Below are positions 882-53,720 of a stretch of DNA of 64,000 nt, piece by piece. The stretch is taken from assembly GCA_036785375.1 (NCBI GenBank), contig JAWMAR010000201.1:124001-188000 (forward strand), written 5' to 3'. Below the pieces are notes generated by a model. The model searched no databases. It saw nothing but the letters and a program-made list of their open reading frames with translations, and was not told where the DNA came from. Positions within the stretch are counted from its first letter, which is position 1. Each line of letters begins with the position of its first letter. Position numbers and translations under genes: made by a program. Origin of the DNA: Leucoraja ocellata (taxonomy: Eukaryota).

Positions 882-1039
882 TCACTCCTGGCCATTGGCT
901 CCATCTGGCAGAAGCAACTCGATCGTGACCTCTTTGTTCAGAGCAGAGAACGTCACCACGGGCTCCCCAACAGACGCCTGTGGGCTGATCGCACTGTAGT
1001 CTTCTTCTGTGTCCTTGCCCAGGGCCTGATACGTTGGAT
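882..1039 (-). CDS. Gene A exon 6: ITAM DPTYQALGKDTEEDYSAI, degenerate repeat VTFSALNKE, stop
   Basis: ctctgtccccag acceptor, DxxYxxL-x7-YxxI, TGA at 884-882. Confidence 0.85.
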
Positions 1040-2419
1040 CTGGGGACAGAGGCAATGATGTGAGCAAACTGGGGAAGTAGAAACAAAGAACTGCAAATGC
1101 TGGACATAAAGTGCATGAATAGCTGAGCAGGTCAAACAGCATCTCTGTGGAGAACATGGACAAGTGCCGTTGCGGGTCGGAGTCTGATGAAAGGTCTCGA
1201 CCTGAAATGTCATGTATCCATTTTTCTCCAGAGATGCTGCTCCAGCACTTCGTGTCCTTTTGTGTGAGGGATCACTGAACACAAACAGTTTACAGTGTAA
1301 CAGGAGGCTTGGAGCCCGTCCTGTTCCCACTGTTCTGTGTGGAGTGATCCAGCGAGCCTCCCCCCAGCCCATCTCCTCTCCCCATTTCAGTTTCTCTCCT
1401 ATCATATACTTGTAGGTCTTTATATTACTTATATTTCCTCCCATAAGGGATAGTAGAATTAGGCCATTTGGCCCATCAAGTCTACTCGGCAATTCAATCA
1501 TGGCTGATCTCGCTCCTAACCTCATTCTCCTGCCTTCTCCTCATAAACTCTGACACCTGTACTAATCAAGAATCTATCTATCGCTTCCTTAAAAATATCC
1601 ACAGATGACCTCCACAGCCTTCTGTGGCAGAGAATTCCACAGACTCACCACCCTCTGACTAAAGACATTTCTCCTCATCTCCTTCCTGAAAGAACCTCCT
1701 TTAATTATGAGGCTATGACCTCTAGTCCTAGACTCTCCCAATCGTGGAAACATCCTCTCCACATCCTGCCGCTCCATCTATTTTCATATCATCTGCAAAC
1801 TTTGCCACAGAGTCTTCAATCGATCTTCTTACAGCATCTAATTTTTGTTTGTCATCCTTTGCTGGTTTAAAATTCCCAAGTTCTCTGGCCTCCACTCATC
1901 TGCAAGTGCTGTTCACCCTTACTTTCAGTTGGATGTCACCCTGAAACTCATTCGTGAACCATGGATGGTGCACCCTTCTCCCAGAGCCTATCTGCCTCAC
2001 TGGTACTTTTGCTGAGATTTTCAATGTACTTGTACAATCTTCCCTGTAACACCCTTCAATCCCTACACCCCTCCCTATCTCTGTACCCCCTCCGGTCTCT
2101 TTCCTGATTTCTATCACTCCTCCAGCCCCCATGCAACCTATGATGAATATTCAGATGAAGCCTGCTTGTGCATATCACAGCAGTTCACATCTCCCCCTTG
2201 CACACCTTACTCTGTGCCTGGCTCTACCTCATGTCTGTATCTAGCACGACACCATCACTCTGTAAAACGTTAGAGTATTTGGAGGGTTATGGTCTGAATG
2301 CAGGTATATGGGACTAGGGGAGATTATGTGTTCGGCACGGACTAGAAGGGTCGAGATGGCCTGTTTCCGTGCTGTAATTGTTATATGGTTATATGGTTAT
2401 ATAGTATTTCCAATCTCCC

Positions 2420-2456
<37 letters not shown>

Positions 2457-2915: not shown

Positions 2916-2951
<36 letters not shown>

Positions 2952-5900
2952 CCCCTATTTCTCTCTCTTCTCTTCTCTCTCTCTCCCATAAAATCTCCCA
3001 TAGCCACCGTAGCATTATTTTATTACACGTACATCTACCTCTGTCTCCACATCTCTCTAATCCACATTGATTTATCTCCCTCGACACCTCTCTCTCGCTC
3101 AATTTATTTTGTCTCTAAATTTCTCTCTCCATCTGCCTTTTTGTTTTGCTTGTTGCCCCTCTCTCTACCAGAACCTGCCGTTCTCTGACTGCCTACCTTG
3201 TGGATCTGCCTTGGCAGCTGTCGGTGTAATCATACTGTAGTTGGTGACTTTCTCTTTATTCAGGGCCTGGTAGTTGGTATCAGGGTCTCCTTCAGTCGAG
3301 CTGGGCCCAGGCATCTCCTCATCCTGGGCACTCCCTTTGTTTCCAGTGTCAGCAATTCCCACAGGTGAATAAATCCCTTCCTCATTGTCTGTGGGGGATA
3401 TAATGGAGGCGAAAATGGAAGATTAAGATCCACTTGGTCCCATTTCCCTCATTCTTCACACTTCTCCCTATGGCAGCACCATCTCTCGGTCTCCTCCATT
3501 GAAGGACACATGAGAGAACAGATTTCAAGAAAACAATTAGGGACGGGAGGGGGAGGGGGGGGAGGGTGGGAGGGGGGGGGGGGGTGGGGGTGGGGGGTGG
3601 AGAGCTGGCATCGACCTAATGAGCTGAAAGATCTTGTAAATATTTAAATCTGCTCTTCCACACTTTTTCTGATGTTACCAACCATGCCCCGATCGTCACT
3701 GCTTTCTCTGTGTTGGGAGCAAACCCCAACTCAGTGTCATCCCACTGAGCAAAAGTCCCACATCCCGGGAATTTGAGGAAATTTCCTTGGAATCCTCTGC
3801 AAAAAAATATTCTTGTGGAAACATACAAATTAGGGGCAGGTATAGTTCTCTTTGCCCCTCCCATCTGTGCCCCATCACTACAGTAGGTCATTATCTTAAC
3901 AACAGATTCCCACCCACCTCTGTGACCTTTCTACCTTGGGTCAGGAAGAATGCATACAGTTCTGCCTTTATCATATTAAAAAACTCTGGTTTTATTGCAC
4001 TTTGGGGAGGAGAGTTCCAAAAACTCACCACCCTCAGACCAAAATGGTTTATCTTCACTTTAGCAATAAACAGGTGGCTGCTTATTTGTGAAGCCTTGTT
4101 CAAAATTCTCCCACAAGAGCAGCATCTTCTCCACATAGGCTGTGGGCCGAGGAGCTTTATTCTACAGTTCCATGACCCAAGTCACCAAACTACATGAAAT
4201 TTTCACATATTGTGTAAAAATATTATATAAATCACCACTGAAACTCGTCATGAACAAGACTTGCACATTTTTATTAAATTAGAGAAAAAACGGAAAAAGT
4301 TTGGGTATTTTTAGTCCAACCAAAGCACGTTTAACATTGAGTTGTCTGCCAGTTGGCCAATCACGCGCTTTGTTTCAGGCTAGCACACAACATAGCTGAG
4401 AGGGCTTCACTGATGACTGTTTTACCGGAGATTCCAATGAAGATTCTTTCTAGTTCTGTGGAATACATGTCGTGGAAACTTGCAGCCGGGTAATTGAATT
4501 TAGTGAGAGAAGCATTAAGAAATCTGAAAAATGTGCAGCTAAGTGGATAGAAGTGGAAGAAAGTCTTGAAAGCAAAGTCCCTGCTGAGATGCTGCAACCC
4601 AAAGTTGTGAAACTTTGTGAATCAACTCAAACTGAAAGGTAAGATCTAAGTCTGAATTTATGAAAATTAATCTGTATGGACTTTAATTTATTTAATTGCA
4701 CCCTTTATAATGTGAAAAAATGAGATTTGGAGGCTGTACATTCACTCATTTATTCATTCATTCACTCACTCATCCATTCACTCAATCATTCACTCATGCA
4801 TTCACTCATTCACATATTCATTCATTCGTGAAGTTGAGGGCCTAAACTATATGTATCAATAACAAGGTAAATTAAGCATCTTCACTAATGCCAGCTTGTT
4901 GTAGAGTAATAAGTCTTAATCATCTAGTCTTGGAGCTGCCTGCGATAACTTACCGGTAAAAGGTGCTCCGATCGTGGGGCCTATTTATTTAACATAGTGA
5001 AGCCGCGGTCTCAATTAAAAAGCGGTCGATTCGCAAACGCGGAGCCGCGGATCTTCTCCGCTAGCGGGGCGGGGGGGGGGGGGGGGGGATTGTGTACATA
5101 GTGTCGTCTGTAGCGGCCGTTTTCAGGAAAACGGAGGAATATATCTTTCTGGAATATATATAGGTATAATAATATATTATATTATATCATTGAATTATTA
5201 TATTATTATACCTATATTACTATCTGGAATATATATAGGTATAATGAAATATAGTTTAAATGGACTGCAACACGGAAATAGGCTGCCCATCGTGTAATAT
5301 GGGCATTGGCCACTAGATGGCGCTTACTTTCCCGATCTCATTTTCTAATTAGTTTAATTAATTAATGTGGAACATTTGGCAATGACGAGTTATGACATCC
5401 TTCTCAATTATATTTCATCTAAATCTGTGGAAAATTTCATGTAGTTCTGTAACTTGGGTCACAAAAACTGATTTCTAGACACATTTTTGATGCTCGGCCC
5501 ACAGCCTACAACATTTGCAGGGCCCTCATGTATACACAAGGGGAAACTTACAGTGGCAAATTGATGATGATGATTCTTTATTGTCAGGTTTACCTCGGTA
5601 CAGTGATATTCTTTGTTTTTGCAAACAAAGTACACAAAAGCGTCGCCACAAAGGCACCCGACAAAATTACAAAAAGTGCTCGTCTGTTCTTCGTCCCCCC
5701 CATTCTGCAGGCAAGTTTCTGCATGTCTTTGACACCTAGGAGGAGATTCAAGCACCTGGGAGATACTTACATATCCAGAGGAAGAAAGTGCAAACTCCAC
5801 ACAGACAGATTTGGTGGTCAGGATTGAACGTGATGTCAGAATAAAGCCCGGGTGCCCGGAGGTGTGAGGCCGCAGTTCCTGCCATCCTGCGTGCCTGGGC

Positions 5901-8900
5901 TCTGAAGGGAATGTCAGTATTGCAACAATGCAGGGTCATTGCCAGAGCACATGGGGGATTCTAGCAGTGGTTCTGAACACCAGAGGGATGATTCGGAGTA
6001 CCCATCGGCTCCAGCAACGCCAACTTCCCAGAAATCAGCTTCTGAAAATACCCAGGAGTTGCTGAAGGCAGTGAGAGATCAGCAAATCCCCTTACCTTTG
6101 GCAGTGGTGTGTCCTTTCTTCCCTGCTTTCTTCTGACCTAGTTCAGGAGAGACAGAGGGGCAGTTAGCACAAAGATCCAGCACGGACCCACTGATGTAAA
6201 CTGCAGATGCATCATGCTGACTTCCCACACTGCCCATCTACCTCGCTGCGTGCATTCTACGTACTTATCATGAGTTTGATTTTTTTTATACTCGGGAGAG
6301 CTTAAGAATTACCTCGTACAGTGGGACAGGCCCTTTTGCTTATGAGGCTGAAGGCTGATAAATCCCAGGACCTGATAGTCTCCATCCCAGGGTACTTAAT
6401 GAGATGGCTCTAGAAATTGTGGATGCATTGGTGATGATTTTATAATGTTCTATAGATTCAGGATCAGTTCCTGTGGATTGGAGGGTAGCTAATGTTATCC
6501 ACTTTGCAAGTAAGGAGCAAAAGGGAAAAACGAGGAATTATAAACCAGTTAACCTGACATCGGTGGTGGGAATGATGCTGGAGTCAATTATAAAAGATGA
6601 AATAGCGGCACATTTGGACAGCAGTAACAGGATCGGTCTGAGTCAGCATGGATTTACGAAGGGGAAATCATGCTTGACGAATCTTCTGGAATTTTTTGAG
6701 GATGTAACTAGGAAAATGGCCAAGGGAGCCAGTGGATGTAGTGTACCTGGACTTTCAGAAAGCATTTGATTAGGTTCCACATAGGAGATTAGTGGGCAAA
6801 ATTTGGGCACATGGTATTGGGGGTACAGTGCTGACATGGAGAGAAAATTGGTTGGCAGACAGGAAACAAAGAGTAGGGATTAACGGGTCCCTCGCAGAAT
6901 GGTAGGCAGCGACTAGTGGGGTACCACAAGGCTCGGTGCTGGGACCACAGCTATTTCTAATATATATTAATGATTTAGATGAAGGGATTACAAGTAACAT
7001 TAGCAAATTTGCAGATGACACAAAGCTGGGTGGCAGTGTGAACTGTGAGGAGAATGCTATGAGCATGCAGGGTGACTTGGACAGGTTGGGTGAGTGGGCA
7101 GATGCATGGCAGATGCAGTTTAATGTGGATAAATATGAGGTTATCCACTTTGGTGGCAAGAACAGGAAGGCAGATTATTATCTGAATGGTGTCAAGTTCG
7201 GAAAAGGGGAAGTATAACGAGATCTGGGGGTCCTTGTTCATCAGTCACTGAAAGTAAGCATGCAGGTCCAACAGGCAGTGAAGTAAACTAACGGTATATT
7301 GGCTGTCATAACAGGAGGAGTTGAGTATAGGAGCAAAGGGGTCCTTCTGCAGTTGTGCAGGGCTCTAGTGAGACCACATCTGGAGTATTGTGTGCAGTTT
7401 GGTCTCCAAATTTGTAGAAGACCATTCTTGCTATTGTGGGAGTGCAGTGTAGGTTCACAAGGTTAATTCCCGGGCTGGCGGGACTGTCATTTGCTGATAG
7501 AATGGAGCGACTTGGCTTGTAGGCACTGGAATTTAGAAGAATGAAGGGAATCTTATTGAAATTCATATAACCATATAACCATATAACAATTACAGCACGG
7601 AAACAGGCCATCTCGGCCCTACAAGTCCGTGCCGAACAATTTTTTTTTCCTTAGTCCCACCTGCCTGCACTGATACCATAACCCTCCATTCCCTTCTCAT
7701 CCATATGCCTATCCAATTTATTTTTAAATGATACCAACGAACCTGCCTCCACCACTTCCACTGGAAGCTCATTCCACACCGCTACCACTCTCCGAGTAAA
7801 GAAGTTCCCCCTCATGCTACCCCTAAACTTCTGTCCCTTAATTCTGAAGTCATGTCCTCTTGTTTGAATCTTCCCTATTCTCAAAGGGAAAAGCTTGTCC
7901 ACATCAACTCTGTCTATCCCTCTCATCATAAAGTCCCCCCTTAACCTTCTGCGCTCCAGAGAATAAAGACCTGACTTATTCAACCTATCTCTGTAACTTA
8001 GTTGTTGAAACCCAGGCACCATTCTAGTAAATCTCCTCTGTACTCTCTCTATTTTGTTGACATCCTTCCTATAATTGGGCGACCAAAATTGTACACCATA
8101 TAACATATAAGATTATTAAGGGATTGGACACGCTAGAGGCAGGAAACATGTTCCCAGTGTTGGGGGAGTCCAGAACCAGGAGCCACAGTCAAAGAATATG
8201 GGGTAGGCCATTTAGGCCAGAGGCGATTTTCGAGCGACAGTCACCACCGGCCTGTTGCATAAATGACGCGCAATTGACGCCCAAGTGGGACAGACCCTTT
8301 GGAATTCTCAGCTGCTTCGGGCATTTGGAGTAAAATCAAAGTGCAGGAGGAACTTTGCCATTCAGGGAGGGAATCAACAGGCGTTTGGGGTCGGGAGCCT
8401 TCATCACACTGATGATTAGTCTTTTGAATTCCTCCAGCACTTGCGTTGTGCTCATGGTTCCAGCATCTACAGTTTCTTGTGTCTGTTACCTCTGGTTTAT
8501 CATCCAGTCCCTGCCCTCTCCATGCTGCCCTAACCCAAGAAGACCCCCACTTAACTGGTCTGTCCACAGCAGAAGCAGGCGGTGAATCCCAAGGCACTGA
8601 ACCACAGGCACAGGAAGGTGATTGTCACGGCCATCCTAACTCGGGAGCACATGCCCGAAGAGCCTGTGAACAGAAAGAAACGGGATACTCACCGGCGTTC
8701 CGTGCACAGAGTTGAGGATCACTGTGCATCATGTGCATTATTGTCATTACCTATGACAATCCGTGTTAATTTACATGTGAGACAGAAATAGCGTCCTGTC
8801 TGGTTTTGAAAACGTGACCATCCATGTGTGTTTGACCATTTGTGTGTCACGCTGTATGGTGTGTATGCAAGATCAGCCATGAATGAATGGTGTAGACCTG

Positions 8901-11900
8901 ATGGGCCGAATGGCCTAATTCTGCTACTCTAACATGAACTTATGATCCTGCTCTTTAACTGTTCACACCTGTCTATTGCATGTCTGAAACACTCAAGGTG
9001 TGTTTGTGCCCGTGATTGTGTATTCTGGCTGTTCATATGTATATCTGCGACTAGATGTGTGAGATGTGTAATGGTCTGTGTGTGCTTAACTATGTATGAA
9101 TGCAATTAGTCTTATAGTCACACAACGCGGAAACAGGCCCTTCGGCTCAACTTTCCTCATCTAAACTATTTCCACCTGCCCGCTTTTGGCTTATATCCCT
9201 CCAAATCTACCCTGTCCATGTACCTGTCTAAATGTGTATTTAACGTTATGTATAACTAAGTGCATACATTTCACTTTGTGTGTCAGAGAGAGATTCTGAT
9301 GGTTGTATCTGTGTGTGATGGTGAGAATGTGATTTTTAGTGCAGTTGGCTGTATCTTTGATTGTTCATCTGTGTGTCTGTGATTGCGTATGCAATTCTAT
9401 GATTGTTCAGATAACTGTGTATGTATGTGTGTGTGTGTGCATGTGTGTGTGTTCATGAGATTGTATTGATTTGTGTGTGTGAGGCGGTGTACCTTTTTGA
9501 TTTGATTACTTCTTTGGATCTGTGTGTGCGTGTGGATGTGTATCTGATTTCTATGCCTGTGTGTGGGGGAGAGAGACAGAAACTATGTATATGTTTGCAT
9601 GTCTATGTATGACAGACCATGTGTCTGTATGTGAGAGGCTGGGCATCCAACTTTGCAGATAGCTTTATTGTGCAGTGTTACAGGTATGTGTGGCCACTTA
9701 TGTTTAACCGTGAGACGGTTTGTGCCAATGGTGTGTGATTTTCTCTGCACAGGTCTGCGTTTGTGTGAGACTATGTGTAAGTGCATAATTCTCATGTCCC
9801 TATCTGCAACTCATTATGGGAGGTAGGTAGGTGCATGTGTGCAAGTGTACGTCGGTAATGGTGAACTTGTGACATGTTTGAGATTGTGTTTGTGTAAATA
9901 CATGAGTGTGTAAGTTTCACTGGGAGCAAGACTAGTTGGATGAGATTCCTGCTGATATGTACACGACTATCTAGTGGACGACCGTGTGATTGAGTGAGTG
10001 GTTCAATGCATATGCACGTGTGTCCCTTTCCACTTCGACGACTGTGTGAGATTGGTGTCGGGACAGGAGAGAAATTACTGGGGTGCAGGGGGGGGAGACA
10101 TAACAAAAAGTCCAACCAGTTTTTTGCATAAACTCGCCAATGAAGTTACAGGCTGGGGCCACGTCAACGGATAGGTCCTCCTGGGTTGCCTCCGAAAGGC
10201 ATTTGTACACGGCGCTGTTGGTGTTGGAGTCAGGTGTGACGGTCAGCTGCGCGCCTCCGAATTCCACATGGTGTCTGCTGTCGTCAGATATTTTGGTGCT
10301 ACCTTGGTACCAGTGGAATTTTGTTCCTTGTGCCAGGGTAGCGCATCTCAACTCCAACTGACAGGGACTGCCCGAGGCGGAGAGTTTCTCAACCGTGTAG
10401 GCAATCTTTCCCGCGGAACCTGGGGAGGAGAGAGTGAGGTTAGAGCCCAGTCATATCGGCACGGCACACGGGGTCATCAACACAGGGCCACACGACCTGA
10501 CTGAACCGGGCCGTGTTGCATCACGGGGATAGCAAGTGCACGATCAGTTTAAAGGGCAGAACACCCATCTGCTCAAAAGGCAGGAAACTTCCTGTAAATA
10601 TTCCCCGCATACAGCATGGGACAGTTCAGCGTGCGTCTGCACCTACACGCAGTGGGAGCATCCTACTCCTGCAAAGAGTAGGAGTAAACAAGTCCTTTTC
10701 AGAATGGCAGGTAGTGACTAGTGGGGTACCGCAAGGCTCAGTGCTGGGACCCCAACTATTTACAATATATATTAATGATTTGGACGAGGGAATTAAATGC
10801 AACATCTCCAAGTTTGCAGATGACACTAAGCTGGGGGGCAGTGTTAGCTGTGAGGAGGATGCTAGGAGGCTGAAAGGTGACTTGGATAGGCTGGGTGAGT
10901 GGGCAAATGCATGGCAGATGCAGTATAATGTGGATAAATGTGAGGTTATCCACTTTGGTGGCGAAACAGGAAAGCAGACTATTATCTAAATGGTGGCCGA
11001 TTATGAAAAGGGGAGATGCAACGAGACCTGGGTGTCATGATACACCAGTCATTGAAAGTAGGCATGCAGGCAGTGAAGAAAGTGAATGGTATGTTAGCAT
11101 TCATAGCAAAATGATTTGAGTATAGGAGCAGGGAGGTTCTATTGCAGTTGTACAGGGTCTTGGTGAGACCACACCTGGAGTATTGCGTACAGTTTTGGTG
11201 TCCAAATCTGAGGAAGGACATTATTGCCATAGAGGAAGTGCAGAGAAGGTTCACCAGACTGATTACTGGGATGTCAGGACTTTCATATGAAGAAAGACTG
11301 GATAGACTCGGCTTGTTCTCATTAGAACTTAGGAGATTGAGAGGGGATCTTATAGAAACTTACAAAATTCTTAAGGGGTTGGACAGGCTAGATGCAGGAA
11401 GATTGTTCCCGATGTTGAGGAAGTCCAGGACAAGGGGTCACAGCTTAAGGATAAGGGGGAAATCCTTTAGGACCGAGATGAGAAAAACATTTTTCACACA
11501 GAGAGTGGTGAATCTCTGAAACTCTCTGCCACAGAAGGTAGTTGAGGCCAGTTCATTGGCTATATTTAAGAAGGAGTTAGATGTGCCCTTGTGGCTAAAG
11601 GGATCAGGGGGTATGGAGAGAAGGCAGGTACGGGATACTGAGTTGGATGTTCAGCCATGATCATATTGAATGGCGGTGCAGGCTCGAAGGGCCGAATGGC
11701 CTACTCCTGCACCTATTTTCTATGTTTCTATGTATGCTGTGAGGGGGGGGGGATTCAGTTGGTGGGAAGGGTCGGCGACGGGGGAAGAGTTTCTGTGGGA
11801 GAGGGGATTCGGTGTGTGGGGAGATTCGGTGATGGAGGCAAATGTCGATGGGCCCACAGAGATTCAATGGGCGGAGAGAGTCTGTGATGGGAGTGTCTGC

Positions 11901-14560
11901 ACTGTGTGAGTGGTTTCAGCGGGCAGAGATGGAGTATCCGTGGGCTGTGGGAAATTCAGTAGATGGGAACATTCATGGACTGATGATGTCCAGAATTCAA
12001 GCAGTCATTGCATGTAAAGGATATGCAGCAACATACTAAACATGACTACTTTCATTTACATGACATTGCTGTGTCCCAAACATTATGGTGCCCTGAAATG
12101 GGGAACTATGTATAAACACAGCTGTAATTTCTACATGGTGAAACCAAAATGTGTAAAAATTGCCTTTATGAAAATCTTACAATATGCACTTTAACCAGTG
12201 TGATTTTTTTCTATTACAAATCTCAAATTGTGGCGTATTGAGGCAAATAAATAAATAATGGGTCTTTGTCCCAAACATTATGGAGGGCGCTGTAACCAAA
12301 AAGGAAGAAACTAAGAATGAACACAAACAGATAGAAGCAAGAGGCGGCCACTCGGCCCACAAGCCTGCCACCATTCATTATGATCCTGGTGATCTGTCGC
12401 AGGCCTCAACTCCTGTTCTGTGCCAGTTCCCCATAGCTCTCTAACCTCACAAAAACTTACAGACTTCCTCTTTAAAATCCCCAATGATCTGGCCTCCAGA
12501 GCCTTCTCGGGTAAAAACATTCTAGAGATTCATCACTTCTGCAAAATATTCTGTTTTAAATTGCCACTTGTAACTCTCTACCCTATTCAACAATCTTCCA
12601 CTGGTTATTACATCTTATCATCTACCTTGTTGAACTCCAGCAGGATCTTGTAGGATCAGTAAGATCACCCCTCATTCTTCTAAACCCCAAACAATATTGA
12701 TCTAATTTCTTTAGTTATTTGCGATAGGATTGTCCTTTCATCCTGTGAATTGTCAGAGTGAATATCTTTGGGACTGCTCACAATGCTGGTGTATCTTCTT
12801 CAATTAGATGAACAAAACTGCACAGTAGTGCTGGTGTGAACATCTTTCACAACCTCACCAAAACCAGCAGTCCCCCGCGAGTCATGGCGCCAGGCGGTGG
12901 AGAGCTCTAATCGAACTAGCTGCCTGCCCCATTTCCAGGGATAGGTCCGTGCCTGGGTGCAGTTAGAAAGGGAATACGCGCTGTCCACGGGCACTCTGAG
13001 GGAGTTCCGGGACCGCTGGGCTCCGCAGAGTGTTGAATGTATCCTCAATAAGGATTGTAGCATAGTTGTATAGTAGTTTATTAAGGATATATGTTTGTAT
13101 TGTGTTATGGTGGTGGGTTCTAGCTTGTTTTATTGTAGTGTAAATATTAACTTTAAGTAATTGAATACATTTTATGATTTTTTTTTTAAACAGCAGTCCC
13201 TGGGTTACACCAGAGTGTCGTTCCTGAGAACGGTCCAGCAGCCGGTATCTATGCGTCAAAAACTAAACTTTTCTGCAGAAATCTACATTTTGCCCTATAC
13301 ACATGCTAAAATTCTTGCATTTCATCAAATAATCACACCAACATTACCCGTAATTCTGCAAATGGAATGTTTACTGAATGCAGTCATTAATAAATACCAT
13401 GAAATACATTGTTACTATTATCACCAGCTCACCAGCTTGAAAAATGCTCTATAAGATGTATGGGAGAATTTGTGTAAAGTTGGATAAAGTTGACATTTTT
13501 GGATATTGATGGAATCACAAGATGTGGGGTTAGTGCCGGACAATGGCATTGAGGTAGATCACCATTCCCCCCTCCCATCGCCCTTTCTTTATTGCCCCCC
13601 ATCCCACTGGCTGCCACCACCCTTCTTTCTGTGTCCTGCCAGCTGACTTCACCCGCTCTCTTGATTTCCTTTTGATCAGACTTGTCACTTTCTCTCCTCC
13701 CACATTCTCCCTCTCTCCCTACTCCTCACCCTGCTTTTGCTGACTCCTCACCCTCTCTCTCTCTCTCTCTCGCTCTCTCTCTCATAACCTGTGGGTCCTC
13801 CTCACAGTTCACTTTTCCTGTGATACACCCATTTAAAGCTTATTCTGTACAATGGAGACTCTAAGAAAGGGGAGAGATATGGTCCCTCACAGCCCTCTTG
13901 TGCTGACCACCCCTTGAACCACTACAATATCACCTCACCAGGTGCTAACCACCCCCCCACACCGCATCCTCACTTCCTCAACCAGTTAGTATAGAAATGA
14001 CTTATAAGTCTGAAGCAGCAGTGGCGGCGGTATGGGGTGAGAAAGCCGGTTGAGATGCAGTGAGAGCCCTTGGGAGAATGTTGTGGCTAAAAAGGGGGAA
14101 AGGACCTTTGCCTGGACTGTGCTGGGGAAGAGGTTGACCCACAGCACTGATCACAGTGTATATCATTTACCCTCTGTGTCTCGGGGGATGCCGAGACAAT
14201 GGGCAATAGAGGGGAACTGAGAATTCAAGAGCAACAGCAGATCCTCCGTTTGGTTCTCCCTCCCCATCACTACGCCCCTCTGAACCATCCTCAGGAGCAA
14301 CAGCCCCTCAGTCTATTATTCATTCCTCAGTGCTCTTTCCCACTCCCTCTTGCTATCACTCTCTCACTACTCCCTGTCTCATCCTGCTGATTGTCCTCGC
14401 TCCCTGTCTCTGCCGCTCGCCCCTTCTTGCCCATAAGCTCACTTTTCCCACCCTCTCTCACTCCGCGCTTCCTCTGCCTTCCATGTCCCCACCCCAACTC
14501 ACCAGTCCACATGGAGCAGAAGATGATGACTCCCAGTACAGCCTTGGGCAGGGTATCCAT
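882..14560 (-). CDS. Gene A (whole model): single-C2-Ig-domain, SLAM/CD2-related type I receptor with two ITAMs; 6 exons, 279 aa
   Basis: Exons 14560-14503, 10419-10138, 8663-8556, 6137-6096, 3388-3197, 1039-882. All junctions are phase 1 and sum to 840 nt in frame. Domain order is leader, Ig, TM, basic stretch, ITAM tail. Confidence 0.75.
1075..1260 (-). mobile_element. Penelope-associated 3' repeat (ctgaagaagggtctcgacccgaaacgtc type)
   Basis: Same motif as the tail attached to the Penelope element at 40760-40890; further copies near 16890, 23820, 26585, 51300 and 59000. Confidence 0.55.
1450..1900 (-). mobile_element. CR1 LINE 3' fragment
   Basis: Translates to ESRTRGHSL...FSQRVVSLWNSLPQ (CR1 ORF2 C-terminus). 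Confidence 0.85.
2413..3170. repeat. CT-rich low-complexity tract
   Basis: (CT)n-like polypyrimidine sequence. Confidence 0.95.
3197..3388 (-). CDS. Gene A exon 5: cytoplasmic, EEGIYSPV plus ITAM DTNYQALNKEKVTNYSMI
   Basis: cccccacag acceptor, AAG|GTAGGC donor, 192 nt open frame, DxxYxxL-x7-YxxI. Confidence 0.85.
4136..5508. mobile_element. non-autonomous DNA transposon with terminal inverted repeats
   Basis: taggctgtgggccgag (4136-4151) and its exact reverse complement (5493-5508). Subterminal inverted motif tgacccaagt..aactacatgaaattttc. No coding capacity. Confidence 0.75.
6096..6137 (-). CDS. Gene A exon 4: basic juxtamembrane segment QKKAGKKGHTTAK
   Basis: ctctgtctctcctgaactag acceptor, AAG|GTAAGG donor, 42 nt, phase 1-1. 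Confidence 0.7.
6345..8220 (+). mobile_element. degraded CR1 LINE (RT region) with a nested antisense CR1
   Basis: DWRVANV, QHGFTKGKSCLTNLLEFFE, FADDTKLGG motifs. Confidence 0.9.
7565..8101 (-). mobile_element. CR1 LINE 3' end (second family, (TTATATGG)n tail) nested in CR1
   Basis: VQFWSPNYRKDV...VVAVWNELP translation; interrupts the host CR1 at gaaacatataag. Confidence 0.85.
8551..8663 (-). CDS. Gene A exon 3: stalk and transmembrane segment GSSGMCSRVRMAVTITFLCLWFSALGFTACFCCGQT
   Basis: Acceptor tttctttctgttcacag and ~23 hydrophobic residues. The exon ends at the weak donor A|GTTAAG (8556) or reads into TAA (8553-8551). Confidence 0.75.
10138..10419 (-). CDS. Gene A exon 2: C2-type Ig domain (GSAGKIAY...CQLELRC...FHWY...AVYKC...APACNFI)
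   Basis: Polypyrimidine tract and CCCCAG acceptor. Four-Cys pattern CxxxLxC..W..YxC..C typical of CD2/SLAM C2 domains. 282 nt. Donor is TG|GCGAGT (GC type), or alternatively T|GTAACT ending the exon at 10150. Confidence 0.85.
10672..11731 (+). mobile_element. CR1 LINE, 5'-truncated, (TTTCTATG)n tail
   Basis: [17 protein letters not shown] and [11 protein letters not shown] motifs. Confidence 0.95.
11980..12294 (+). mobile_element. Tc1-like transposon right end
   Basis: Transposase C-terminus RIQAVIACKGY..TY*, direct repeats tgtcccaaacattatgg (twice), terminal ctg|ta. Confidence 0.7.
12865..13200 (+). mobile_element. Tx1/L1-clade LINE 3' fragment with 10-bp TSD
   Basis: LEREYALSTGTLREFRDRWAP C-terminal motif; TSD cagcagtccc at 12865-12874 and 13191-13200. 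Confidence 0.7.
14503..14560 (-). CDS. Gene A exon 1: signal peptide MDTLPKAVLGVIIFCSMWT
   Basis: ATG, hydrophobic core and a canonical phase-1 donor G|GTGAGT. Confidence 0.8.
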
Positions 14561-28295: not shown

Positions 28296-28315
28296 GGGCA
28301 CGCTGGTGGATGCTG

Positions 28316-36740: not shown

Positions 36741-36779
36741 GGCTTGTGCACCAAGGTTTGGGCTTTAACACAGCAGCAT

Positions 36780-40890: not shown

Positions 40891-42301
40891 CAAAGTACTT
40901 AGTTAGTACTTCACCTACATCCTCTGATGCCAAGAACACATGTCCTTCTGTATTCTTGAGTGGTCCTACCTTCTTCCTGGTTACCTTGTTGATTTAATAT
41001 ACATATAAAAAGCATTACGATTTTCTTCAACCCAACTTACGTCAGTTCTAATCACCTACTTGAGTTCATTCCTACTTGCTTTATATTCCTCAATATCAAG
41101 AGATTGAATGAAATAGTCAGGGTGAGAGCAGTCGGTTAGTTGTGCTTCCTCTGCTCATGGTGAGATCAGTTCCTGTTTCTTTACTTCCTTTTTCAGAAGA
41201 TATCCGGACCTTAGAACTCAAACCTCAAGATGTGGGGGCTCTTCTCAAGAAGTGTTGTCTGCCTGTTCTGTGCCTACCTTTTTGCCAGATGTTTGGGTAA
41301 TGTCAAGTTTTAGAGTTTGATTCTGATTATAGAGCGGTGAAATATGTGTGAGCGATGTGAGGTTTATAGTGCTTGCAGGGGCCATTCATCATGGTGACAT
41401 CCTCCCTTTGCTTGTTCACACCTTTGCATGTAAATTGCTTACTTGCTCTTTGTCTCTCCCATTCTTTCACACTTTTTCCTCTGTCCCTCTCTAGGTCTTG
41501 ATCTCATTCCATCTCACTTAGTCTCTCTCTATATCTCACTTAATCCACAGACGTTCTATATCTTTGTTCGCCACTTTGACCATGTTTGTTGGTTCCTAAA
41601 CACCTCAAACATCTCTGTAGGACAGACTGTCTTTCCCTTTGTTGCCCCCTCTCTCTCATTCTCTCTTCCTCCTTTTATTCCTCTCTCTCCCTCATGGTCT
41701 CCCTCTGTATACGTATCGGACGTTCAGCACCATTTTATGTTTCACATAATTCTGTTCATTAGTTCTGATCACCTTACCACTTCCTGCCACCATTTGATAG
41801 AGTGCATGACTCGAGTTCGCTTATCATATCCTGACAGACCTTTAATGTGGCGTCTACATGGAGGTATCTTTACAGACTTAAGTACGACTTCTTCCCCATG
41901 GCTCTCAATTTCCTGAACCTTTAATGTCTTTCACACCCCCTTCCCTGAGCTGCTGTCATGTACTCTTGTACCTAATTCTACCTCAATTGGTTATTTTGTT
42001 ATTGCATTTTAGTATTTTTCGTACGTCTTCAGTTTACACAAAAATCTTTGCACAAATCTGCGGATTTGCATACATTATTGTATTTGGATTGTCGTTATTC
42101 TCTTTGTCGTTTACTCTGTGAGCTTCATGCGAACTTGAAACTTCATTGCCCCTGGTGTATATGGCATAAACTAATCTGAATCTTGGGTTTCAAAGGCAGT
42201 GAGTTACTGCCTGGGTTCAGGGTCACACTTGACCGCATTTCTCTTGCCTCAGAAAAATCCATCACTTCTGGTTGTCAGCTGCAAGGTGGGAGTTGCACTA
42301 T

Positions 42302-42605: not shown

Positions 42606-42724
42606 TTCTGAACTTCCAGAACAAGGGGTCACTTCCTATAGTGACCAATGATACCAGACATGGAGGTCACCAGTTGATTTATGACCAGCACACAGAGGAA
42701 TCCTGACAATAATGACAAGTGATA

Positions 42725-43035
42725 AGAGCAGAATTAGGCCATTTGGCCCATCAAGTCTACTCTGCCATTCGATCATGGCTGATCCATCTCTACCTCATAA
42801 CCCCATTCTCCCCATAACCTCTGACACCCGTACTAATCAAGATTCTATCTATCTCTGCCTTAAATATATCCACTGACTTTCCCTCAATGAAGTCCCCCCT
42901 CATTCTTCTAAAGTCCAGTGAGTATAGGCCCAGTGCCGTCAAACGATCATTATATGTTAACCTATTAATTCCTGGGATCAATCTTGTAAACCTCCTCTCG
43001 ACCCTCTCCAGAGCCAGAACATCCTTCCTCAGATA
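42725..43035 (-). mobile_element. CR1 fragments
   Basis: IPGINRLTY..LGLYSL.FRRMRGD. Confidence 0.75.
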
Positions 43036-43039
43036 TAGC

Positions 43040-43775
43040 TCCAGAGGTGCTGCTGCAGCTGACGCCTTCCAGAGGTGCCCATGAGAAGCCGAGGCTGGAC
43101 CCTCATGGGCTGGGCCTCGTGGGCCGGTGTCTCGCCGGCTGGAGCGTGAGCCGGAACCTTGTGGGTCAAAGTTGGAGCCTTGCGGGTCGGAGGTAGAGTC
43201 TCAAGGGTTGGAGTCTGAGCCTCGCAGGTCAGAACCTCACGGGGCGTAGTCTCGCGGGTCAGAGGTGGAGCCTCGCGTGTCGACGAAGCCACGCGGACAA
43301 TGGTGTCTGGGTCAGAGGAGCCTGCGGTTGGGACCTGGGTCAGAGGAGCCTGCGGTTGGGACCTGGGTCAGTGCCACAGAGGCCTCAAGAGAGGACCCGG
43401 TGGTGATAATGGACAGGTCGGAGCGGCGGTCGATGATGGCACCGACTGACCTATGAGGACAGACACGTGGAAGTGTGGACGCCACTGCTGAGGGAATTAA
43501 CAAAGAACGACCGGGCATGAGGGGACCTCCTTGAGGGAGGGGGAAGAACAATGGTACCCGGCGTGGGGGGAAAGGGCTTGGCATGAGGGACAGGGCAGAA
43601 CAATGGATATTGCAGAACCTGCCGTGAGGGGGGAGAAAAACGGGGACCTGGTGAGGGGGTACTTTGTAACTTTGTAAGCACCTTTTAGTGGCGACTATTT
43701 GCATACCTTGGTTGGGCAAACAAACAATTTCACTGTGACTCGTCACGTCTGACAATAAAGTGTTCAATTCAATTC
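43040..43775 (+). mobile_element. GC-rich non-coding retroposon with short internal tandem repeats and a Rex/L2-like tail
   Basis: ctgggtcagaggagcctgcggttgggac repeated; ends aatttcactgtgac..gacaataaag..(caatt)n. Confidence 0.45.
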
Positions 43776-44900
43776 ACAATATTTCAAATGTGGCCGGAGT
43801 CCATCCCTATTTATGTGTACGACCCCTCATGAAATAAATACTAGCATTGCATTTGAATTCTTTACTGCCGATTCAACTTGCAGATTAACTTTTTGGGAAT
43901 ATTGCACCAGCACTCCAAAGTCCCTTTGCACCTCCGATTTCTGGATTCTCTCCACATTTAGAAAATAGTCTACACCTTAATTACACTATATTCCATCTTC
44001 CACTTCTCTGCCCACTCTCCCTACCTTTCCTAATCCTTCTGCAGAATCCCAGCTTTCTCTACATTACCGGCCCCTCCACCTATTTTTCACATCCACAAAC
44101 CTGGCCACAAAGCCTTCAATCCCTACATCCAAATCATAGCTGAATGGTAACTGTCACCTCCAGTTGCTTCCAATTACTAGAGGAGGTGGGTGTTGCTTTA
44201 TGTTTTCTCTGCCAGATACTTGACCACTCACTGACTTGCTTGGATCCCATAACATTTCTCACATTTGCGCATTGAGGAATACATGGAGCAGAATACCTGC
44301 TGGCAAGCACATCTTTCATAGGTCAACAGGAGGAACGCATCAATAGCATTATATGGCAGAATGACACCTATGCCTGGCCCATACAGAACCAAATATGACA
44401 ACCTTTCCCTCTGATGACACAAGAATGGCTGCGGGCAAAGGGAATGCAACGGGCTGATATGGGGCATCCATGATGCATTCCTGTTTCAAAGTGAAGCGCG
44501 CGGTCCATCCACATCCTGAAGGTGTGCAGATTTGTACGTTCATTGGCCTCTGTAAAATTGCTCCTAATGTTCAGGCAGTGGATGAGCAAGTGAGATTGTA
44601 TACAACTCGTGTGAATGACTGATCGATGGACGGAGTGAACTCGTTGGGCCGAAGGGTCTGTTTCCTTGCTGTAAAAAAGTGAAGGGTGCTTTCAGGAGCC
44701 CGTTTACAATCACCAACAGAATCTGCACCCTGTTCCCTCCGTGGGCTCACTGATGCAGGGACTGTGGGCTGGGTATCTCACGGAGCCGGGAGCCAGACGA
44801 TGGGCCGCATGGCCTGCTCCTGTGCTCTGTGATTCTCCCAGCTCCGTTTCCTCCTCCAGTCACTGAGCTGTCCTACTGACTGCCTCTCTTGTCTCCACAG

Positions 44901-45218
44901 CTGGGACTGGGGCCGCCGCTGGCACCGTGACCGGAGCTCGGGGACACTCGGTCTCCTTACCTGCTGGGATCACAGTCACACCGAACATTACGGAAGTGAC
45001 GTGGAGGCAGAAATCGCCCAGATTCAAGATAGCGGAATGCTCGAATGGGAAGATGAATTACTTTCACATCAATTACATGGGACGGGTAACTCTTCACCGC
45101 AGGAACTTCAGTTTGGAAATCCGTGATCTACGGGGAGAGGACGCGGGTGAATATGAGGTGACTTTTGGAACAAGTTCAGGAGATGAAACTCAGGCAATAG
45201 TCCGACTGGAGGTGTACG
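44901..45218 (+). CDS. Gene B V-set Ig exon without the canonical B-F disulfide
   Basis: G.SVSLP..VTW..GRVTL..NFSLEIRDLRGEDAGEYEV..VRLEVY; tctccacag acceptor, G|GTGAGT donor. Confidence 0.92.
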
Positions 45219-48200: not shown

Positions 48201-51200
48201 CCTGAAGTCTATTATTACTTCCTTTGTCTTTGAGGTGTTGAGGAGCAGGTTATTTTCTTCGCACCACACTGTCAGCTGCTCCACCTCATCCCGGTAGGCA
48301 TACTCGTACCCCCCGGAGATGAGTCCCACCACTGTAGTGTCATCCGCAAATTTGACAATGGTGTTGCTGTGGTGGGCGGGGGCGCAGTCATGTGTGTAGA
48401 TGGTGTAGAGCAGGGGGCTCAGTACGCAGCCCTGTGGAGAGCCGGTACTGAGGCTGAGGGCCGTGGATGTGTGATGGCCCACTCTGACTCTCTGGCTGCG
48501 ACCCGACAGGAAGCTATTTATCCACGTACAGGTGGAGTGTGGAAGTCCCAAGTCCCCCAGTTTGTCCACCAGTTTGTGGGGAAGGATGGTATTAAAAGCA
48601 GAGCTGTAGTCCACAAAGAGCATCCGCACGTAGCTCCCCCGCTGCTCCAGGTGAGACAGTGCAGCATGGAGGATGTTATACGTTATCAATATAGTCCTGA
48701 TGGTCCCTCGTTGCTCTTGGTGCCCCCACACTCACCCACCCCCCCATGCCGGATCCCTCTTTGTTCGGAATCAGATTCGGAATCTGAATCCATTGTACAC
48801 ATTCCCGCCTTCCCTCCAGAACAAAGTTCTATCTGACTTGGCCTTAAATACTTTTACCGACTTGGCCTCCACAGCTCTCCAAGGGAGAATTCCACTGATT
48901 TCCAACCCTCAGAGAGAAGGAATTTCTCAATTTCTCCATCTGACAAGGACAGCCCCTTATCCTGAATCTCTAATCCACGATCCCACTCCTCCTGCCTCTG
49001 TTTCTTGTCCTCCCCCCACTGGGGGTCGTTTCTCTCAGTCCCCTCTGCCCATACCGATCAATACGTTAAAAATGTCCATCAGGTGTGAAAGAGACATGGG
49101 GACCACTCACTCACAGGAGTGACAAAATACATGGAACTGAGGAGAATTCCCAACATACAGAGCCATGAAACCTGTGCAGACTGGAGATTTTACAGACATC
49201 TTCAACCTCTCATTACTGAAGTCTGAAGTTCCCACCTGCTTTAAGAGGGCATCAATAATAAAAATTCTAGTAAGGCGACATACTCTTCCAAAAGAGTAAG
49301 GCAATATGCCTCAATGACTATCGATCTGTGGCACTAACATCCGTGGCGATGAAGTGCATTGAGAGATTGGTTACGGTGCATATCAACTCCTACCTCAACA
49401 AGAACCTCAACCCATTACCATATGCGAACTGCAAATTTTTCATGTTTATTATATTATTTACAGATGTTTACTATGTTTACATATTCTGTTGTGCTCCTGA
49501 ATGTAAGAATTTCATTGTTCTATATGGGGCATATGATAATATCACACTTTTGAATCTTGGCTGTAAACAGGACACAGTGGAGAGTTTGTGGATGAGTGCG
49601 GGCAGTGGTCGGGAAGGGGGCGCAGCATGTGTGGACTTCCTCCAGCAACAACTGTCTGAACTGAAGGGGGAGGGAATAGATAAACTGGTGGGTGGAAATG
49701 AGCTGGGATCAGCCTAACATTCACTCATCGCTGTTGGAGACCGGTTGTTGGGTATCGAGGGGTCCACAAGGATCTCCTTTACTCATCTTTCTTCTCTCTG
49801 CCCCAACCTCAGAGCCCGTGGCAGGAACACAGATCAAGGCTGAGAACACCACCGAGATCTGCAACTTCAACCTGACCTGCTTCGTGACCTCTGGTGGCCC
49901 CATCAACTTCACGTGGTGGAAGGAAGCTTCGGGAAACGCCAACACCCATCACCTCGAGGGACATGGAAAGACAATACAGGTTCATCACACAGCAGAGGTC
50001 GGGGACGTTGTGTACAGGTGTGACGCCACGAACCCGGTTAGTGAGGGCACAGCACAGATCCGGCTGAGGGATATCTGTAAACAGACCGCATCTGGTGAGT
50101 GTCAAAGTGAGGATCCCAGGTTATTGGGAGGACAGTAGTTTATTTGTTCATTGGGACAATGTATTGGGAGTGTGTGATGGGACAATGTGGAGGGAACTTC
50201 ACTCTATCTAATCCATGCCTCAGGCAGGGCCGGATTTAGATGAAGAGAGGCCCTAAGCTGTTCCACTTGTGGGGCCCCTCCCAATCCCCCACCTCCACGA
50301 CGAGAGGAAGATGGTCCACCAGATTGACACCGATTTGCAGCCGAGCGTGGCCAATGAGATAAGGGGCTGGAAAACGGCGCTTATTTGTTTATTTATTTAT
50401 TGCCAGTGCTAGTGTCGAGTTATTGGCTTAAAACACTATTATTCTGAAATGGAGGGCAAGGAAAATTACTGAAGGGTTGTTTAGAGACTACGGTGCGTTG
50501 TGACAGCATGTGTAAGAAAGGCCTATGACAGTGTCAAAAATATTATACACCTTGCAGGGTTCTCACTTCACTTTTTTTCTCTGGTGTCAGCCGGGCAATC
50601 TTGGCAGCTTTTTAAGTTGCGAAATGACAGTTTAGGTGGTCATTTAAGGCGGCTTGCATGACGCATGCGATAATGTGGTCGAACGAAGTGCGTAGTTACC
50701 AGTCGGAATTATGCTCAATGAAGCATTCACATATTATTTCTGCTTCAAATAAAGTCACAAACTAAACATATTCACAAATTAAGCCATGATGACATGCAGC
50801 AAAATTATAATACAGTATCTCAACTCGTTTTACACTTTGCAATGAATGCAATTTCTATTATTTCTTTCCACTTCCAAACAAAGATGTGGTTGGATTATTC
50901 AGCATATGATCAACCTTAGTCTTAAATGTCCTCTCCTTTATTCTAAGACTGCGGCCCCTTGTTCTGGTTCTTGATATACACACATCAATAAACTGATAAA
51001 GTGCAATGGGCTGTTATAGGTCAGAGTTTGTTTGAAGTTGTGTTTAATAGTCTGATAGCGGTGGGGACAAGCTGTTCCTGAACCTAGATGTTGTAGATTT
51101 CAGGCTCCTGTACTTTCTACCTGATGGCAGCGGGGAGATGAGGGTGTGGCCAGGATGATGTGGGTCCTTGATGATGCTGGCAACTTTTTTGAGGCAGCGA

Positions 51201-53720
51201 CTGCGATAGATCCCCTTGATGGTAGCGAGGTCAGAGCCGATGATGGACTGGGCAATTTATTACAATGTTTTGCAGCCTTTTCCGCTCCTGGACGCTCAGT
51301 AACTCAGTGGATGAGGCAGCATCCCTGAAGAACATGTATAGGTGAGGCTTCGGTTGGGATACTTCTTTAGACTGATTGAGGCAGGGTGGGAAGAAGTATT
51401 GTCCAGATAACTGTGGGAGTTGATAGGTTCTCACAGACTGTTGTGAGTCTGTGGAATTCCCTGCCTCAGAGGGCGGTGGAGGCCGGTTCTCTGGATACTC
51501 TCAAGAGAGAGCTAGATAGGGCTCTTAAAAATAGCGGAGTCAGTGGATATGGGGAGAAGGCAGGAACGGGGTATTGATTGGGGATGATCAGCCATGATCA
51601 CATTGAATGGCGGTGCTGGCTCGAAGGTCCGAATGGCCTACTCCTGCGCCTATTGTCTATTTATAGTAGTCTTGACTATTGTCAGCGACATCCTCAGGGG
51701 CTGTAAATTACAAACATTTACCCCTCTGGGTGAATACATTTATTCTCTAACCTAAGATGGTGTCCCATGGGTACAGAGACATCAGCCAAGGAAAACATCC
51801 TTCCTGGGTCTAGTCTGTCAATCCCTGTTAAATTTAAAGACCTCAAAGCAATTGCTTCTCATGCTTCTGCTACATTCGACAGAGTTCGGGCCAGGTCTGC
51901 TTCATCTCTCCTCATGGGCCATTGCCCACAAATCCACAAATATCCTTCCATAGGTTGGGAGACCAGATCCAGGACAGTGTGCTTCATTCCGTATATGACC
52001 AGTGCCCTGGGAGTGAGGGTTTATATCTGGGCATACGGTTAACTGCCCAGTACTGCGGGAGGAGGAGATGGCGACTGAAATATTGAGATCTGATTTTGAA
52101 TCCGAAGAAAAATAGTCAGTATCAGAGGATGAGGAGGAGACGGGCTACTGAGGGGCAATGTTCAGAGGGGCAGAATTTGCCATGGGGAGGGATACAGGGG
52201 TGTGATGTGAGGGGTGGTTGGGGAAGCTGAGGCAGGGTGTTGGGGTGATGGGGACTTTCCCCAGCCTGAGGTGGGATGGCGTGGATCTGTTGATCCCGTG
52301 CCCCTCGGAGCGCGAGGATGGAGTAATCACGGAATCTTTTCTCCTCTCCAGATCCAGGGAATGGAGCATGGATAATTCCATTGATATCGGTCCTTGTCAT
52401 TGTGGCCGTTGCCATTGTGGTCTCTGCCATTGTGATTTTCTTCAAACGCTATTCAACAAGGGACGGGCCAGCAGGCAAGTGTCTGACCCCCGAGGGCCAA
52501 AGGTCACAGCCCAGGGGAGAATATGGGGCGAGGGAGGGGGGGAGGTGTTCAGGGTACAGAAAAATCTCAACACGCTCTCTAAACCAGGGGACTCAGTCCA
52601 AGGGAAAAGGTTGAGGTGGGGTTGGTGGTGCAAGGTACAGGAAAGTGTCCCACCCACGCACCCTCTGGACCAAGGGTTGCAGCCCAGGGGAGGAGGTTAG
52701 GGATGGATGGGGTTCAAGATACAGGAACGTCTCAGCTTTAGAGGTCACAGCTCTGAACAGGAGATAGAAAAGGGGGCTGGGGTCAGGGTGAGGGGCCGGG
52801 ATGACAGGAAAAAGGGCAAAGATCCAAGAAAGGGTGTGGGAGGCAGAGGAGACGAAGGTTGGAGGAGGAGGCTGGGAGGGTAGAAATAGCAGACGGTACG
52901 TGCAGTTGGCACGGAGGGAGGGAGAGAGAGGGGTGATCGGGAAGCGTCTTGGTGCGACTGGAGTGCGAAGGAGTTGTTGCATGGTGCAGGGGCAGGTCAT
53001 CATCACTCTCTCTCTGCCCCACAGACCCAGGGCCCACGGAGACTGTCTATGCTCAGGTCGAGCAACCACAGAGACGTCCTGACAAACAGCAGCCTCCGGA
53101 GGGAAACAAAACGGTAACGGGACACGTTCTGACCCATGGGAGAGGGGATCAGTGGGACTGAACCCTCATCCTAGAGACCACGCTCACTATCCCCAGCCAG
53201 GCCAGGGTTAAAAATGGGCATACACCCAGTTACTGGAGTACACTGTCCCCACACCGCCAGTTACTGGAGTACACTCTCCTCCATCTACCCAGTTACTGGG
53301 GTTCACTGTCCCCACACACCAGTTATGAGGGTACCCTGTCCCCACACCCCCAGTTACTGGGGTATACTGTCCCCACACACCAGTTACTGGGGTTCACTGT
53401 CCCCACACCCCCAGTTACTGGTGTGTACTGTCCCCACACCCCCAGTTATTGGGGTTCACTGTCCCCACACACCAGTTACGAGGGTACCCTGTCCCCACAC
53501 ACCTAGTCACTGTGCTATGCCTCCTTCTCTTTACACAGTTGAGTGTATCCAGAGCACAATGTCCCTTTGCTGTGAACACTCTCTGATTTCTCTACAGGTT
53601 CAGAGTGAGGAGGAGAGAATGGGGATCATTGCCTCCGTGTATGATACTATCAACCTACCTGGGACCTCGGGCATTAGATCACCGGACGCCCCTGGAAAGT
53701 CCCAGCACTGTGAGCCATGA
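44901..53720 (+). CDS. Gene B (whole model): SLAM/CD2-family receptor, V+C2+TM with ITSM and ITIM-like tail; leader exon not identified
   Basis: Exons 44901-45218, 49813-50094, 52352-52474, 53025-53113, 53598-53720 join in frame (phases 1,1,1,0). Confidence 0.88.
45845..46880 (+). mobile_element. CR1 LINE, third family
   Basis: SGVP.SSVLGP, KCEVLHFG, RGDLIEVYKIMRGIDR; ctatgact tail. Confidence 0.9.
47420..48680 (-). mobile_element. young Rex-Babar LINE, 5'-truncated, open RT frame (47643-48680), (TTCTA)n tail
   Basis: MLFVDYSSAFNTI, GSPQGCVLSPLLY, KFADDTTVVG, LPSGRRYRS. Confidence 0.92.
49170..49560 (+). mobile_element. Rex-Babar remnant
   Basis: DIFNLSL..VPTCFK..NDYRSVALTSVAMKCIERLV. Confidence 0.65.
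49813..50094 (+). CDS. Gene B C2 Ig exon
   Basis: EPV...CNFNLTC...FTW...YRCDATNPVS...DIC (SLAM/CD2 C2 signature); G|GTGAGT donor. Confidence 0.92.
51435..51660 (+). mobile_element. CR1 3' end
   Basis: VVSLWNSLPQRAVEA..GYGEKAGTGY. Confidence 0.85.
52352..52474 (+). CDS. Gene B transmembrane exon DPGNGAWIIPLISVLVIVAVAIVVSAIVIFFKRYSTRDGPA
   Basis: cttttctcctctccag acceptor; hydrophobic stretch followed by KR; GC donor CAG|GCAAGT. Confidence 0.88.
53025..53113 (+). CDS. Gene B cytoplasmic exon with ITSM TVYAQV
   Basis: ctctgccccacag acceptor, ACG|GTAACG donor, TxYxxV. Confidence 0.85.
53220..53510. repeat. ~32-bp minisatellite (ccagttactggggttcactgtccccacacac), about 9 copies, in the last intron of gene B
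   Basis: Directly visible tandem array. Confidence 0.9.
53598..53720 (+). CDS. Gene B last exon with SVYDTI (ITIM-like) and stop
   Basis: tttctctacag acceptor; SxYxxI; TGA. Confidence 0.85.
   Translation, partial: VQSEEERMGIIASVYDTINLPGTSGIRSPDAPGKSQHCEP

Follow-up and report, generated by a model that had tools for sequence, protein, structure and literature searches.

The stretch analysed here, a window of 64,000 nucleotides from Leucoraja ocellata (positions 124001–188000 of contig JAWMAR010000201.1, hereafter C201), contains two immunoglobulin (Ig) superfamily receptor genes, which we call A and B; coordinates are those of the window unless marked C201. Gene A lies on the minus strand, where six coding exons run from an ATG at 14560 to a stop at 882 and encode a leader, a single C2 domain, a transmembrane (TM) segment and a three-exon tail with two immunoreceptor tyrosine-based activation motifs (ITAMs). 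Its product has 279 aa, or 286 aa if the longer of two C2 exon forms is used. Gene B, on the plus strand (41230–53720), encodes a 333-aa protein with a leader, V and C2 domains, an uncharged TM segment, an exon containing an immunoreceptor tyrosine-based switch motif (ITSM) and a last exon containing SVYDTI, a sequence like an immunoreceptor tyrosine-based inhibition motif (ITIM). Both exon models read open throughout, from start to stop (Table 1). The genes stand head to head with their ATGs 26,670 bp apart, and most of the space between them consists of retroelement fragments. A preliminary description of the window had placed an ITAM gene on the minus strand, divergent from an ITSM and ITIM-like gene on the plus strand, and the motifs and orientation agree with it. 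It had also taken the two genes for a paired-receptor module. We find instead that their divergence is that of two neighbours among the ∼25 C2 exons of a SLAM cluster, and that B has closer relatives of activating type outside the window.

Table 1. Exons of genes A and B in the window.
Gene	Feature	Position	Strand	Basis
A	leader (signal peptide) coding exon	14503..14560	-	exon model; RNA contigs indicate splicing to C2
A	single C2-type Ig exon, 303 nt, GT donor	10117..10419	-	seen in RNA contigs
A	C2 exon, alternative 282-nt form, GC donor	ends 10138	-	exon model
A	stalk and TM exon; juxtamembrane Cys, Arg at outer end of helix	8556..8663	-	
A	short basic cytoplasmic exon, 42 nt	6096..6137	-	agrees with NCBI models
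A	cytoplasmic exon; proximal EEGIYS motif and ITAM 1 (3272-3228)	3197..3388	-	
A	last exon; ITAM 2 (1031-987) and stop	882..1039	-	
B	leader exon	41230..41296	+	
B	V-set exon, CD2/SLAM type; canonical disulfide absent; homogenised with Arg-TM neighbours	44901..45218	+	
B	SLAM-type C2 exon, 282 nt, four Cys	49813..50094	+	
B	uncharged TM exon, GC donor	52352..52474	+	exon model, without RNA confirmation
B	cytoplasmic exon; ITSM TVYAQV (53042-53059)	53025..53113	+	
B	last exon with stop; SVYDTI, a decayed ITSM that matches the ITIM pattern	53598..53720	+	

Gene B is an ordinary V–C2 receptor belonging to the CD2/SLAM family with an ITSM. Its V exon matches the Pfam V-set domain (3e-11) and finds SLAMF5, CD48 and CD2 as its best matches in the PDB, although the Cys pair of the B and F strands is absent. 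In a tree of C2 domains the C2 of B is nested among elasmobranch SLAM domains with a support of 96/98. The counterpart of SVYDTI is T-x-Y in five relatives (P0090, P0084, P0091, P0080 and P0094), so that the second motif of B looks like another ITSM that has decayed and at present matches the ITIM pattern.

Part of this neighbourhood is present twice on the contig. C201:1–103226 is an inverted copy of C201:120835–251592, with 97.8% identity across 110 kb of alignment blocks, and the two arms meet at a 200-N assembly gap. Three A-type genes lie on C201, while Leucoraja and Amblyraja yielded two each. We consider it likelier that the mirror arm is a second haplotype scaffolded in reverse than that it is a recent duplicate; in either case the A–B layout repeated there is not independent evidence. 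A 33-kb block, C201:188660–222188, is found in one arm only, and holds an Arg-type gene (R2, below) together with a decayed B-like tail that has a stop in its last exon. This suggests that gene content varies between haplotypes.

Four TM exons of the cluster encode an Arg and are followed by a short tyrosine-free tail, and three of them are part of genes whose V and C2 exons are open. Of these Arg-type genes, R2 ends ∼85 bp to the right of the window, R3 lies ∼44 kb past the end of B, in facing orientation to it, and R1 is in the mirror arm; the Arg-type SLAMs have a Cys-rich stalk. The V domain of B is 89.5% identical to that of R3 in amino acids (95.6% in nucleotides) and 72.4% identical to that of R2, as compared with 81.0% for B', the copy of B itself in the mirror arm. 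The C2 domains of B and R3 are 88.2% identical and form a clade with a support of 100/95, whereas those of B and A share 22.6% (BLASTP, 24% over 70 aa, E 2e-5). Among B, B', R1 and R3, sites in the V exon group by arm (eight sites) and never by receptor type, with one site of another pattern, while in the C2 exon all 10 sites group by type (Fisher's exact test, V versus C2, p 2e-5). Hardly any type-specific sites lie in the V exon or upstream of it; they start abruptly just after it, where there are hundreds. Judged from these site patterns, the V exons have been homogenised by gene conversion between B-type and Arg-type genes, which is the usual signature of paired receptors. This signal holds whether the mirror arm is a haplotype or a duplicate, unless the arms are chimeric. 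The Arg-type SLAMs are thus likely to be the activating partners of B, a putative role that would involve coupling to an ITAM adaptor; such coupling is suggested by the TM Arg and the tyrosine-free tail, and an FcR-gamma-like gene lies nearby.

The splicing of gene A was examined in contigs from four sequencing runs, whose RNA origin is indicated by the skipping of introns. In three of the four runs, from two studies, a contig over the C2 exon spans 10116–10417, corresponding to the 303-nt exon with its GT donor at 10117. The flanks of these contigs, as attributed from record offsets and bin depths, comprise 96, 36 and 29 letters of the leader exon and ∼108, 81 and 109 letters of the TM exon, and the intron adjoining the leader has no cover. 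The leader therefore appears to be joined straight to C2, with use of the GT donor, as judged from bin depths and record offsets rather than from a read-out junction. No listed contig piece from the four runs ends at the GC donor. NCBI models of relatives have both C2 exon lengths, and one Leucoraja model has isoforms of 279 and 286 aa. The preliminary description had given both C2 exons 282 nt and the same Cys layout; the layout (C-x5-C...C...C) is indeed common to both, and a 282-nt form of A is possible, but the RNA contigs show 303 nt, which leaves the GC form as an alternative splice product at best. We sought a hidden V exon for gene A, including in the intron between leader and C2, and found none. 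A candidate extra exon at 5901–5771 was dropped, as it breaks the phase and the models of relatives have no such exon. The same four runs, which were chosen via gene A, leave the TM and first tail exon of gene B (52300–53200) uncovered, and their contigs cannot show absence.

Homologues of gene A were found as eight batoid proteins and three shark genes (Heterodontus, Scyliorhinus and Stegostoma), all 11 of which NCBI names uncharacterised. In all 11 the first Cys of the C2 domain falls within the first 41 residues, and so all are V-less. A canonical ITAM is present in ten of them, four of which have two; this retention indicates that the ITAMs of A are not chance matches, although ITAM 2 scores 18.7 bits against the Pfam ITAM model, under its cut-off of 22.2. 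The proximal IYSx(V/L) motif is retained in 8/11 and the stalk Cys in 10/11. Shark homologues have one ITAM at most; in batoids the two ITAMs are alike (46% over 24–28 residues), so that the second probably arose by internal duplication. Skates have an Arg at the outer end of the TM segment, sharks a Lys in that position, and rays a Lys about one turn further inward. The TM segment of the window gene contains no Asp or Glu, and the gene no CxxC.

The C2 domains of skate and shark A proteins are 24–35% identical, and those of paralogues show purifying selection (proportion of nonsynonymous differences, pN, 0.084; of synonymous differences, pS, 0.141); positive selection on this domain was tested for and not seen. 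Among the matches each species retains one or two copies of A, while V–C2 SLAMs expand. The gene A lineage is older than the split between sharks and rays. No homologue in bony fish or chimaera was recognised among the 10 of 59 representative matches checked by name, plus P0021, P0028 and P0011, and we found no description of gene A in the literature searched, which did not extend to subscription papers such as the 2011 paper on Xenopus CD2/SLAM. A paralogue, A2 (C201:106387–117830, plus strand), has its short basic exon repeated three times and a His in place of Tyr in its first ITAM; its last exon was not found before the assembly gap. A2-like genes also exist in Leucoraja and Amblyraja.

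Several lines of evidence connect the C2 domain of A with those of SLAM receptors. The four-Cys layout is present in 12 of 13 A sequences and 34 of 37 SLAM sequences, but in only 1 of 22 other Ig sequences. When a profile built from A alone is used, the top 10 non-A sequences are all of SLAM type. An AlphaFold2 model of the A C2 domain alone is confident (predicted local distance difference test, pLDDT, 88), whereas that of full-length A is poor (pLDDT 37). With the C2 model as query, domain 2 of NTB-A ties for best match among 48,161 chains (Z 9.2, root-mean-square deviation 2.3, 78 aligned residues) and has the highest identity of the listed matches. In the ESM Atlas, SLAM-named clusters come first (0.93; 166–173 shared features), with FCRL, allergin and CEACAM clusters close behind at 0.92–0.93, which makes this a lead only. 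The C2 tree was built from 72 sequences, P0022 being left out as it had no domain match; P0021 and P0028, both named HEPACAM2-like at NCBI, were moved by sequence from the other Ig set to the SLAM type. The A clade itself has a support of 100/98.

The location of gene A points in the same direction. In C201:1–658k there are 22 C2 exons of SLAM type and three of A type, together with 14 V exons. Within this cluster, at C201:592449, is a TM exon of the zeta family that scores 43.7 bits against FcR-gamma as compared with 33–38 bits against CD3-zeta. It belongs to an FCER1G-like gene (C201:592449–595600) made up of this exon, one of 21 nt encoding QEEGIYT and a final one. A 2014 survey reported no FcR-gamma homologue in shark genomes (PMC4016189). 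Beyond 630 kb the contig carries reprolysin, kelch, nitrilase, RhoGAP and PEA15 exons. We take the first four to represent neighbour genes of human 1q23, as PEA15 does, and the cluster sits on a segment like human 1q23. In five of the six other species that could be checked (Leucoraja, Amblyraja, Rhinoraja, Hypanus and Stegostoma), A-type and SLAM-type proteins are encoded on one chromosome, and in the three skates (Leucoraja, Amblyraja and Rhinoraja) their accessions are near-consecutive. The preliminary description had called an ancestral link between SLAM ectodomains and ITAM tails plausible, citing human 1q. In its support, both genes lie in a SLAM cluster on a 1q23-like segment with an FCER1G-like gene inside it. 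A CD247-like TM exon is on another contig (C175:2976731).

The five residues of the proximal EEGIY of A (3388–3360, minus strand) recur unchanged in the first half of the ITAM of the FCER1G-like gene (C201:594940). The intron phases differ, and the shared motif may come from a common ancestor or have arisen by convergence as a Src substrate. A further large group of SLAM-type C2 exons is spread over contigs C253, C622, C3022, C1380, C3829 and C4647 (23 matches, ∼30% identical to that of B) and resembles SLAM-like proteins of Heptranchias and Mustelus. Downstream of the cluster, at C201 ∼798–838 kb, there is a tandem array of single-exon genes for rhodopsin-family G-protein-coupled receptors.

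Taken together, these data make it probable that B is an ITSM-bearing SLAM with likely activating Arg-TM partners beyond the window, and that A is an older, V-less receptor with a single C2 domain and ITAMs, likely SLAM-derived and predicted to be an activator. From what is known of related receptors, B would use SAP/EAT-2 or SHP phosphatases for signalling and be an inhibitory receptor or a switch that depends on SAP. Its Arg-type partners would borrow ITAMs from FcR-gamma and, by mimicking the V domain of B, could serve as decoys for ligands, or for pathogens, binding to it. Gene A would act when its C2 domain brings it into clusters, perhaps in the form of a disulfide-linked dimer; once phosphorylated by a kinase of the Src type, it would recruit Syk/ZAP-70 through its own two ITAMs, and its basic TM residue may additionally bind FcR-gamma.

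A number of observations weigh against this reading. Many unrelated Ig domains come within 1 Z of the NTB-A match, and the top phmmer and Foldseek matches of the A C2 domain are of titin/myomesin type and generic I-set; with Foldseek nothing reached an E of 0.001 or better and SLAM chains were not among the listed matches. The grouping of A with SLAM against other Ig domains has a support of only 79/85. Approximately unbiased (AU) tests do not reject a placement of A in the clade of B and the Arg-type genes (p 0.18) or one with CEACAM/HEPACAM-like sequences (p 0.30). Eleven of 13 A sequences score higher on the other-Ig profile than on the SLAM profile, a comparison biased in that most sequences of the former were picked for matching A. 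A homology between the TM exon of A and those of the Arg-type SLAMs, suggested to the eye by SSC-x-C and the Arg/Lys, failed a profile test, the exon being no closer to them than to other TM exons (p 0.52). In Scyliorhinus, A and the only SLAM protein found there are on different chromosomes. The replacement excess in the V exon, B versus B', reaches only p 0.06. Finally, the last exon of the FCER1G-like gene is one base out of frame as assembled, which may be an assembly error or a broken allele.

In one alternative A descends not from SLAMs but from a separate Ig lineage that came into the cluster and gained a similar extra disulfide. The weak tree support, the non-rejecting AU tests, the generic I-set matches and the profile scores are all as this would have it, and the tail introns of A are all of phase 1, unlike the last tail intron of B. 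We nevertheless think such an origin quite unlikely: the four-Cys layout, near-constant in A, is found in a single other Ig sequence, SLAMs lead the ranking by the A-only profile, and A is located with SLAM genes in five species as well as in this genome. A SLAM derivation from a remote ancestor shared with SLAM C2 domains thus seems likely on sequence grounds, though trees do not firmly resolve it, and to that extent the common ancestry of A and B in the preliminary description is supported. As A fails the V-domain test, we do not file it as a member of the SLAM family.

The main rival concerns function, and makes A a dedicated signalling subunit like those of CD79 or CD3, without a ligand of its own and paired in cis, possibly by a disulfide, with the tail-less SLAMs. 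The single Ig domain, the lack of a V domain, the ITAMs and the stalk Cys kept in 10 of 11 homologues would suit such a subunit, as would purifying selection between paralogues, a copy number held at one or two while V–C2 SLAMs expand, and the Cys-rich stalk that the Arg-type SLAMs share. Adaptors serving basic-TM receptors, however, typically have an acidic TM residue, whereas that of A is basic; the FcR-gamma-like gene in the cluster could already serve the Arg-type SLAMs; and A diverges fast between lineages, as its C2 identity between skate and sharks shows. We therefore regard this role as unlikely. We give still less credence, holding it to be improbable, to the view that A and B work together as an activating/inhibitory or receptor/co-receptor pair, under joint regulation from their divergent layout. 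They are head-to-head neighbours with opposite-type motifs, the layout recurs in the mirror arm and the AU test does not reject A within the clade of B and the Arg-type genes; but A has no V domain, the C2 identity is low, 26.7 kb separate the ATGs, the mirror arm is too similar to count as independent, and B has matched partners elsewhere. Opposing signalling motifs, ITAMs in A and ITSM/ITIM-like in B, do occur in one cluster, as had been noted, although the highly similar ligand-binding ectodomains expected of a pair are lacking in A and B. An ITSM is also able to activate.

Like the CD2/SLAM receptors CD84/SLAMF5, SLAMF6/NTB-A, CD48 and 2B4, B has a V domain, a four-Cys C2 domain, an ITSM and a 1q23-like location; A shares with them the four-Cys C2 domain and the cluster, but is V-less and has ITAMs, and the skate cluster includes Arg-TM members. 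Human SLAMs signal by ITSMs (PMC6963180, a text in which ITAMs are not mentioned). For frog CD2/SLAM members, NxxR-containing TM regions are reported (PMC4536121); these Arg TMs provide a precedent for activating-type SLAMs, although the Asn of NxxR is absent from the Arg-type TMs of the skate. The relation of B to its Arg-type neighbours resembles that of CEACAM1/CEACAM3-type pairs, with 72–90% V identity, V-exon conversion and facing genes; Xenopus ceacam pairs are described with 80–93% V identity, V-exon conversion and facing orientation (PMC5112662). In the skate, by contrast, the activating member carries a TM Arg and lacks an ITAM, and the gene that does encode ITAMs, A, is not the one matched to B. 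With CD79a/b and CD3 gamma, delta and epsilon, A has in common one Ig domain, a stalk Cys, one TM segment and ITAMs. CD3, CD79 and FcR-gamma-type subunits have an acidic TM residue or a CxxC stalk motif. A differs from CD79 and CD3 in its two ITAMs (in the window gene and 4/11 homologues), its basic TM residue, its lack of CxxC, its SLAM-like C2 domain and its location in a SLAM cluster.

Gene A is the novel part of the locus, likely an ancient branch of the SLAMs that has an activating tail of its own. More tentatively, A could be an undescribed, elasmobranch-wide ITAM chain built on a SLAM C2 domain, whether a CD79/CD3-like subunit or a stand-alone activator, within a KIR-like cluster of paired, gene-converting SLAMs that includes FCER1G; this we see as possible but less than probable. 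If true, cartilaginous fish would have in their SLAMs a complete system of paired innate receptors, served by two ITAM routes. Little is known of the activating innate receptors of these fish, and the locus offers candidates for natural killer-like or myeloid activation in sharks and rays. It also suggests that the ITSM-only SLAM set of mammals may be a reduced state. The locus is notable for gene A and for the pairs of B with Arg-type genes, even though the pairing of A with B is unsupported.

Long open reading frames of retroelement type sit both between and inside genes A and B. Those at 20132–21178, 34181–36211 and 47646–48731 appear by eye to be of non-long-terminal-repeat type (reverse transcriptase/RNase H-like). 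The last intron of gene B contains a 31-bp minisatellite of ∼9 copies (53225–53512).

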